A stretch of DNA of 64,000 nucleotides from Escherichia coli. GTDB taxonomy: Bacteria; Pseudomonadota; Gammaproteobacteria; Enterobacterales; Enterobacteriaceae. The translations under genes and the position numbers were made by a program. The notes beneath the pieces are model-generated. The model saw only the letters and a program-made list of their open reading frames with translations. It had not been told where the DNA came from and made no database searches. Location: assembly GCF_045037415.1 (NCBI RefSeq), contig NZ_CP173438.1, one strand, 5' to 3'. Shown here one piece after another: positions 21,417-24,115 of this stretch (within the stretch, counting starts at the first letter, position 1; each line of letters begins with the position of its first letter).

Positions 21417-21548
21417 AACCTGCCACAAATCACAAAAAGGGGTCGATCTTTGACCCCGACTTCTCTATAATCCTGCGACCCCACGTTACAAGAAAGTTTT
21501 TTTTCCCGAAACTTTTTGTGTGCTGGCATAGGCTATTCGAAGGGGTAG

Positions 21549-22064
<516 letters not shown>

Positions 22065-22076
22065 TCGGGATTATAG

Positions 22077-22472
<396 letters not shown>

Positions 22473-22504
22473 TTGGCTTCTGCTCCGGCAGAAAACAATT
22501 TGCG

Positions 22505-22531
22505 AAAAAACCCGCTTCGGCGGGTTTTTTT
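22505..22531 (+). terminator. Rho-independent terminator of the rplM-rpsI operon
   Basis: aaaaaacccgc-ttcg-gcgggttttttt. Confidence 0.85.
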
Positions 22532-22866
22532 ATGGCTAAAATCTGCATCAGCGTAAAAAATGGAAAGTTGCTTTTTGCTGCCACCTGACAGACAGGTAAA
22601 ACAAAAACCACATCGCCAATAAGGGACTAAGTCAACTATTTCAGACTAAAGCGCATCTCTTTTTCCCCATTTCCGGCATCGACTCACCACAAAGGTCGCA
22701 AAATCTGGTAAACTATCATCCAATTTTCTGCCCAAATGTCGGGTATTGCTCATTTTTTGTTTGATTTTCGAACAAAGAGAGTCGTTCCTTACTGGGTAAC
22801 ACAACTTCTGACTGGCCACCTGGTGGCTGGTAGCAGTAAAAATTCTGACTATACCTGGAGGTTTTC

Positions 22867-23505
22867 ATGGCTGTCGCTGCCAACAAACGTTCGGTAATGA
22901 CGCTGTTTTCCGGTCCTACTGACATCTATAGCCATCAGGTCCGCATTGTGCTGGCTGAGAAAGGTGTAAGTTTCGAGATCGAACACGTGGAAAAGGACAA
23001 TCCGCCTCAGGATCTGATTGACCTCAACCCGAATCAGAGCGTTCCGACCCTGGTGGATCGTGAGCTGACCCTGTGGGAATCTCGCATCATTATGGAATAT
23101 CTGGATGAGCGTTTCCCGCATCCGCCACTGATGCCTGTTTACCCGGTAGCTCGCGGTGAAAGCCGTCTGTACATGCATCGCATCGAAAAAGACTGGTACA
23201 CGCTGATGAACACCATCATCAACGGTTCAGCTTCTGAAGCCGATGCCGCACGTAAGCAACTGCGCGAAGAACTGCTGGCGATTGCGCCGGTCTTCGGTCA
23301 GAAGCCGTACTTCCTGAGCGATGAGTTCAGCCTGGTCGATTGCTACCTTGCTCCTCTGCTGTGGCGTCTGCCGCAACTGGGCATCGAGTTCAGCGGCCCG
23401 GGTGCGAAAGAGCTGAAAGGCTATATGACCCGCGTCTTTGAACGTGACTCTTTCCTTGCTTCTTTAACTGAAGCAGAACGTGAAATGCGTCTGGGCCGGA
23501 GTTAA
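22867..23505 (+). CDS. sspA: Stringent starvation protein A
   Basis: 212-aa GST-like ORF MAVAANKRSVMTLFSGPTDIYSHQVRIVLAEKG. Confidence 0.95.
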   Translation: MAVAANKRSVMTLFSGPTDIYSHQVRIVLAEKGVSFEIEHVEKDNPPQDLIDLNPNQSVPTLVDRELTLWESRIIMEYLDERFPHPPLMPVYPVARGESRLYMHRIEKDWYTLMNTIINGSASEADAARKQLREELLAIAPVFGQKPYFLSDEFSLVDCYLAPLLWRLPQLGIEFSGPGAKELKGYMTRVFERDSFLASLTEAEREMRLGRS

Positions 23506-24008: not shown

Positions 24009-24013
24009 AATGA

Positions 24014-24038
24014 AAACAGGCCCATGTGGCCTGTTTTG
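24014..24038 (+). terminator. Rho-independent terminator after sspB
   Basis: acaggcc-catgt-ggcctgt followed by tttt, 6 bp after the sspB stop. Confidence 0.75.
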
Positions 24039-24115
24039 CTATCTGTCATCTTTTCGCCTGACTTTGATACTGTGCTACGATAGCGTCGTTATTATCCGCT
24101 AACGCATTTTCCTGA

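Follow-up and report, generated by a model that had tools for sequence, protein, structure and literature searches.

What occupies the DNA between rpsI and sspA of Escherichia coli? In the window (the whole stretch of DNA analyzed, 64,000 nucleotides), the genes follow the order zapE, rplM, rpsI, sspA, sspB and nanR, with the rpsI stop codon at 22470–22472 and the sspA ATG at 22867. From the terminator of the rplM-rpsI unit to that ATG there are 335 bp (22532–22866), coordinates which were re-read and found correct. A sequence-only reading had described this interval as a long, feature-free spacer, large for so compact a region, with no recognizable gene, and probably an extended promoter and leader of sspA. 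The answer that emerged is that the interval is very probably an ordinary junction of two transcription units to which a small evolutionary scar has been added. The promoter and leader biology of the spacer is already known and already mapped. The description as feature-free was mistaken, as the spacer holds a promoter conserved throughout the order, a mapped transcription start, a structured leader of 145 nt and, probably, a gene remnant. The promoter and leader assignment was right for the downstream part and not for the upstream half, which is not promoter and where some 74 bp probably represent a lineage-specific gene remnant.

As to the neighborhood, dcuD (K-12 b3227) is missing from the strain of the window, in which sspB and nanR are separated by 107 bp (24009–24115).

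Conservation of the rpsI-sspA spacer

The rpsI-sspA intergenic region (IGR) was found in 5,425 of 5,426 complete E. coli genomes, and the sequence of the window was 100% identical to that of Nissle 1917 and further strains. Compared to K-12, the strain of the window (B2-type) differed at 6 of the 394 IGR positions, which leave the −10 element and the transcription start described below intact. The IGR did not behave as a dispersed repeat (REP/BIME, ERIC and the like), as both the whole region and a 101-bp core were found, in sensitive blastn mode, at a median of one place per genome.

The comparison was extended to Enterobacterales with a sample of 80 SspA-encoding loci, one genome per species. 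In all the 76 fetched loci where rpsI could be found, it lay directly 5′ of sspA. The distance from the rpsI stop codon to the sspA ATG was 394 bp in E. coli and E. albertii, about 310 bp in most Enterobacteriaceae, and 287–520 bp in 75 of the 77 IGRs that could be measured, the other two exceeding 1.2 kb. So, the size of the spacer is no oddity, spacers of around 300 bp or more being the rule. The alignment of 75 IGRs displayed three conserved blocks, corresponding to the terminator, to positions 22686–22735 and to the Shine-Dalgarno region of sspA, while positions 22549–22628 fell in gaps in more than 90% of the species. The approximately 90 bp from the terminator to 22623 appear unconstrained, and this stretch, with its probable remnant, accounts for the extra 80 bp or so of the E. 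coli spacer relative to Citrobacter, Enterobacter and Klebsiella.

Promoter and transcription start of sspAB

The transcription start of sspAB is known from published mapping in K-12. By SMRT-Cappable-seq, the sspA-sspB transcript runs on the reverse strand of NC_000913.3 from 3377565 to 3376246 under both growth conditions tested (Yan et al. 2018, PMC6131387, supplementary file 3). Base-by-base mapping places 3377565 at A22722 on the plus strand of the window, 145 nt before the ATG and 7 nt after the hexamer TAAACT, inside the range of 6–8 nt set for a primary 5′ end belonging to that hexamer. The promoter and leader reading is supported by this position, and the K-12 start-site data do not give the contrary picture of a start immediately 5′ of the sspA ATG with an unexpressed spacer. 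Apart from the positions given here, the same dataset held no start or end within the interval, with zero further coordinates beginning with 33774, 33775, 33776, 33777 or 33778. Among the rows listed in the supplements of Romero 2014, Kim 2012 and Ettwiller 2016 there was neither an sspA entry nor a corresponding coordinate.

The hexamer belongs to an extended −10 element, TGgTAAACT (22706–22714, plus strand), in which TGn precedes a hexamer with T1, A2 and T6, and most of whose positions are invariant in 44 species. The form TGGTAAACT was found exactly in 63 of the 77 IGRs, and the pattern CTGnTAnAnT fits 75 of them; the remaining two, from Pectobacterium, carry TGATAAGCT at the −10 site. The distance from this element to the ATG is usually 140–245 nt in the 77 Enterobacterales IGRs. 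A weak −35-like hexamer, ACCACA (22686–22691, plus strand), agrees with the consensus in three of six positions and lies 17 bp 5′ of the −10 hexamer, within a CCACAA box whose A26 never varies, and whose C22, C23, A24, C25 and A27 hardly vary, in 44 species. This box is part of the central conserved block, where it appears as CCACAA-N-AAAATCTGGTAAACT. Further upstream, the plus-strand region 22623–22685 contains T-tracts (CTCTTTTTCCCCATTTCC) and is moderately conserved in Enterobacteriaceae.

Two published observations bear on the activity of this DNA. A deletion was complemented "under native regulation" by a plasmid on which sspAB was preceded by 236 bp of its upstream DNA (PMC11879090), and the RpoD holoenzyme binds the rpsI-sspA spacer in vitro, with no added factors, in genomic SELEX experiments (Shimada et al. 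2014). It seems reasonable to interpret that the promoter is used by sigma-70 RNA polymerase, with the extended −10 element offsetting the weak −35. The weakness of the −35 is also the reason why a simple sigma-70 consensus scan of positions 22300–23000 missed the sspA promoter and reported none on the plus strand, which is probably why the interval had looked empty.

The agreement with extended −10 (TGn) sigma-70 promoters includes the TGn before TAnnnT, a −35 with three of six matches, the 17-bp spacing and the start 7 nt downstream. The difference is that the CCACAA box and the AAAATC bases of the spacer between the two hexamers are almost invariant across the order. Such conservation goes beyond what a dispensable −35 would need, so some factor may bind there. 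As judged from the alignments, the near invariance of CCACAA, of AAAATC and of a leader hairpin considered below may leave room for an additional regulator, though none is required. Inspection of the spacer by eye gave no convincing match to IHF, CRP or Pho boxes. Weak RpoH and RpoE holoenzyme SELEX peaks have been reported for the rpsI-sspA spacer. A sigma-32 −10 candidate, CCCCATTT (22666–22673), was discarded, its −35 being poor and its motif not conserved in other genera.

The sspA leader and the proximal promoter candidate

The distance from the start to the ATG defines a 5′ untranslated leader of 145 nt (22722–22866, plus strand). In 72 species the predicted leader length was 76–295 nt, with a median of 148.5 nt. 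The E. coli leader plus 21 nt of coding sequence gave a minimum free energy (MFE) of −48.7 kcal/mol, with z = −2.5 relative to dinucleotide shuffles. In the MFE fold, the 5′ part of the leader forms a long imperfect hairpin (domain 1, 22729–22798, plus strand), where the conserved 5′ UGCCCA pairs with UGGGUA. It is followed by ACACA (22799–22803), which contains a MazF site, by a shorter hairpin of 9 bp, ACUGGCCAC-cug-GUGGCUGGU (22811–22831), and by the Shine-Dalgarno sequence GGAGG (22857–22861), located 5 nt before the ATG and invariant in 44 species, all of them on the plus strand.

The shorter hairpin gave the clearest signs of conserved pairing. Among 25 Enterobacteriaceae, 92% of its cells were paired, with three pairs altered on both sides; among 44 Enterobacterales, 80% were paired versus 23–66% in slid controls, with compensatory changes in six of the nine pairs. 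Domain 1 and the other helices were weaker, the paired fraction of cells in the 25 Enterobacteriaceae being 66–71%; in the inner helix of domain 1, 12 pairs changed on both sides, figures that come from a part of the alignment which is itself uncertain.

The covarying hairpin, together with the mapped start, bears on the best placed of the alternatives considered, namely that sspA is transcribed from a proximal promoter, TGGCCA-18-TAAAAA (22813–22818 and 22837–22842), that would leave sspA with a leader of about 17 nt and make the upstream DNA a non-functional spacer. These hexamers are the best in silico match to a sigma-70 promoter in the spacer (Shimada et al. 2014), and the A/T-rich stretch GTAAAAATTCTGA at the site is conserved in Enterobacteriaceae. 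They are nevertheless a computational prediction and not a mapped start, and SMRT-Cappable-seq gives no transcription start with a 33774xx coordinate. Moreover, the proximal −35 falls within the 5′ arm of the covarying hairpin, so that it is not conserved as sequence. A last argument comes from the MazF regulon study, in whose Table 1 (PMC5001579) the cleaved ACA of sspA is 66 nt 5′ of the AUG; the mRNA therefore reaches at least that far upstream in vivo, which is more than a 17-nt leader allows. Altogether, transcription from the proximal site is very unlikely, and the best consensus match published for the spacer probably does not correspond to the true sspA promoter.

Coming back to the leader that starts at A22722, its length and structure raise the question of function, as it might influence mRNA stability or translation. 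The E. coli MFE fold pairs CUUCU (22805–22809) with the Shine-Dalgarno sequence, but sequestration of the latter was rejected as a conserved feature, with zero pairs showing compensatory change, and it was not relied on because the addition of 30 nt of coding sequence shifts the predicted partner from CUUCU to codons 8–9. A pairing of the leader 5′ end with GCAG was likewise abandoned, the registers being inconsistent between Enterobacteriaceae and Pantoea.

The leader resembles the long structured leaders of stress regulators such as rpoS in exceeding 100 nt across genera, in having a conserved hairpin and in the pairing of the Shine-Dalgarno sequence in the E. coli fold. It differs from them in that the pairing of the Shine-Dalgarno sequence is without compensatory support, its partner varying with the folded length, and in that the literature searched gave no sRNA, protein or ligand partner of the sspA leader. 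Specifically, searches on the sspA leader or untranslated region, and on sRNA or Hfq control of E. coli sspA, returned no regulator or partner. It is conceivable, though on balance doubtful, that the 145-nt leader is a cis-regulatory RNA tuning SspA synthesis post-transcriptionally. The features that would make it a candidate, at the same tentative level, are the near-invariant 5′ end, the hairpin that covaries across the order and the pairing of the Shine-Dalgarno sequence in the E. coli fold; starvation, temperature, an sRNA or a protein partner might act as the signal.

Term-seq data of K-12 (Adams et al. 2021) contain no 3′ end within the sspA leader. The same study lists an ORF-internal sspA 3′ end 85 nt into the coding sequence (K-12 3377335, window 22952), scored as not Rho-dependent; leader and coding sequence up to that end would make an RNA of about 230 nt.

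Termination of rplM-rpsI and the question of read-through

The upstream transcription unit ends at an intrinsic terminator (22505–22531, plus strand) composed of A6, a stem CCCGC/GCGGG closed by a TTCG loop, and T7, all highly conserved. That the sequence-only reading had called the terminator correctly is borne out by K-12 data: by SMRT-Cappable-seq, the rplM-rpsI transcript (b3231|b3230) spans 3377753/3377755..3378803 (Yan et al. 2018, PMC6131387), and its 3′ ends 3377753 and 3377755 map to window positions 22534 and 22532, just beyond the T-tract of the GC-rich hairpin and T7 at 22511–22531. The element is like other Rho-independent terminators of ribosomal-protein operons in its GC-rich stem of 5 bp, TTCG tetraloop, T7 and transcript ends 8–10 nt after the stem. 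It is unlike them in that another small conserved hairpin, CTGC-tccg-GCAG (22480–22491, plus strand), stands before it in the 3′ untranslated region of rpsI; the stem of this hairpin is kept and its loop varies in 75 IGRs, and the dominant 3′ end of Term-seq falls after it. In that study, the "primary" rpsI 3′ end of K-12 is 3377788 (Adams et al. 2021), equivalent to 22499, just 3′ of the small hairpin. The two methods disagree on the rpsI 3′ ends (a dominant one at 22499 by Term-seq, ends at 22532 and 22534 by SMRT-Cappable-seq), which suggests RNA processing between the small hairpin and the terminator hairpin.

These data are pertinent to a second alternative, according to which sspA would be expressed mainly by read-through from the strong rplM-rpsI promoter, the hairpins of the spacer acting as processing or attenuation signals. 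Operon variants b3231|b3230|b3229 and b3230|b3229|b3228 are indeed present in file 5 of the SMRT-Cappable-seq study (PMC6131387), and the Term-seq end at 22499, 5′ of the main terminator hairpin, hints at processing. On the other hand, the sspAB unit beginning at 3377565 was defined, in both conditions, alongside an rplM-rpsI unit ending at the terminator, which is canonical and conserved, and the 236 bp of upstream DNA mentioned above are enough for sspAB to complement the deletion. In K-12, the variants that span rpsI and sspA are minor operon extensions (Yan et al. 2018, PMC6131387). Transcription from upstream may therefore contribute to sspA expression, while read-through as the main source is improbable, slightly more so than the proximal promoter.

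A separate observation concerns the other end of this unit. The rplM leader (window 21484–21564) has a very abundant "orphan" Term-seq 3′ end (K-12 3378723, score 724234), about 80 nt 3′ of the rplM transcription start (3378803) and ahead of the start codon of rplM. This would correspond to a leader RNA of the L13-S9 operon formed by attenuation or processing, and the RNA matched no Rfam family.

Search for small genes in the spacer

With respect to the coding potential of the spacer, the earlier statement that it contains no gene was upheld, as no ORF of at least 20 amino acids is conserved and the homologous interval is unannotated in the K-12 RefSeq record. One detail had to be amended: the short ORF said to start at an ATG at 22541 and to have 17 codons does not exist as such, there being no ATG at 22541, and the ORF meant is that of ATG 22532, with 18 codons and a TGA at 22586–22588. 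Two of the six differences from K-12 abolish, in K-12, the starts of the two short plus-strand ORFs closest to the terminator (ATG 22532 becomes ATA, and ATG 22560 becomes CTG), and ATG 22736 is ATA in Citrobacter and Enterobacter. None of these three starts combined a Shine-Dalgarno sequence and start codon with a frame kept in relatives. Rfam searches at permissive E-values gave zero matches reaching the gathering score and only noise driven by the terminator, the top one being STnc370, with 32.4 bits versus a threshold of 54 and confined to the terminator; the region 22560–22866 was without matches. A literature search for an rpsI-sspA intergenic feature found nothing relevant.

The remaining alternative, that one strand or the other of the spacer conceals a gene for a small protein or encodes an independent small RNA, is hardly credible, since the several ORFs of 18–57 codons that exist have start codons that, where checked, are not conserved even relative to K-12 or neighboring genera, the Rfam matches over the terminator region are far below their gathering scores, the terminator (which could also end a minus-strand transcript, as it has both an A-tract and a T-tract) is accompanied by no extra start or end in the interval by SMRT-Cappable-seq, K-12 is unannotated there, and the upstream half is the least conserved part of the spacer.

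Origin of the 74-bp segment upstream of the promoter

The part of the spacer specific to Escherichia is a filler of 74 bp (22549–22622, plus strand). Within E. coli, the region 22540–22640 occurs as a single copy and varies more than the remainder of the IGR: its identity was only 90–95% in 1,877 genomes, and it was missing from 51. At exactly the same site, 49 of the 5,426 complete E. coli genomes (about 1%) contain an intact gene with DUF695 and RraB domains, annotated as DUF695 domain-containing protein in these 49 genomes, with a length of 795 bp (positions 999–1793 of locus L082). In the divergent genome that represents "E. coli" in GTDB (locus L003), the IGR is 1,217 bp long and the segment is replaced by an ORF of 264 amino acids with DUF695 and RraB domains. 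In strain MRY15-131, where the cassette also lies between rpsI and sspA, the flanks match the window in 71 of 76 positions on the left and in 243 of 244 on the right (22623 to the ATG). The alleles with the cassette and those with the 74 bp are highly divergent from each other, and their flanks are nearly identical.

The 74 bp are collinear with the terminal 85 bp of the cassette, which comprise the tail of the coding sequence and the 3′ flank, and share about 57% identity with them. The position-specific global alignment scored 5, compared to −17 ± 5 for dinucleotide shuffles, none of which reached that score in 1000 trials; none of 270 other windows of the cassette did either, and the score of the coding-tail half alone was reached by 3 of 1000 shuffles. 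The segment lies where the intact gene does, and its collinear similarity to that gene is significant in the position-specific test only. As the unrestricted local alignment of the 74 bp with the cassette was not significant, with 51 of 300 shuffles scoring as high, its interpretation as a deletion scar is considered probable but not proven.

With that caution, the comparison of alleles indicates that the 74 bp most probably derive, by decay, from the 3′ end of a DUF695/RraB gene. They behave like known intergenic pseudogene remnants in being short, single-copy and fast-evolving, in lying at the site of the intact gene and in being collinear with its 3′ end; they depart from them in the low similarity (about 57%) and in that the direction of the event, loss or replacement, is deduced. 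We infer that the segment arose by deletion.

In Erwinia endophytica (locus L063), the IGR measures 1,536 bp, and the place between the terminator of rpsI and the promoter of sspA is occupied by a different ORF, similar on visual inspection to an Asp/Asn beta-hydroxylase. As this is another gene, cargo has been taken up on more than one occasion at the site 3′ of the rpsI terminator.

The upstream edge of this region shows a further difference between lineages. Directly after the rpsI terminator, about a dozen species of the Enterobacter, Kosakonia, Phytobacter and Pluralibacter type (loci L005, L010, L015, L023–L028 and L038 included) carry TATGGATAA-N8-TTATCCACA, a pair formed by a perfect DnaA box and an inverted box with one mismatch, at IGR offsets of about 55–83. 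In Escherichia and Citrobacter the inverted pair is degenerate: at the homologous position of the window (22531–22556) the two boxes have 2 and 5 mismatches, and the IGR of the window has no DnaA box (TTATCCACA with at most one mismatch). To judge by these motifs, a lineage-specific control of sspA by DnaA may exist in the relatives bearing the boxes.

Interpretation and significance

The interval can be described, in the 5′ to 3′ direction, as follows. Transcripts of rplM-rpsI stop at the intrinsic terminator (22505–22531). The next 150 bp or so appear largely unconstrained, their core (22549–22622) being the probable decayed tail of a former DUF695/RraB gene. From about 22623, the control region of sspAB comprises the T-rich upstream part, the weak −35 ACCACA and the extended −10 TGgTAAACT, presumably used by sigma-70 RNA polymerase. 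Transcription, as mapped in K-12, starts at A22722 and yields an mRNA with a leader of 145 nt, predicted to consist of a 5′ imperfect hairpin domain, the short hairpin at 22811–22831, an A/U-rich stretch and a strong Shine-Dalgarno sequence.

In practical terms, constructs for the study of sspA regulation and CRISPRi guides should be aimed at about 22623–22866 and not at the bases adjacent to the ATG, because a conserved promoter dedicated to sspA lies far upstream of the gene and is followed by a long leader. Concerning the evolution of the locus, the gene present at the site past the rpsI terminator has differed from one lineage to another, and only the scar is left in most E. coli. For the study of post-transcriptional control of SspA, the conserved leader hairpin offers an inexpensive candidate; should such regulation by the leader be true, it would add a post-transcriptional layer to the control of a global regulator of stress and virulence.
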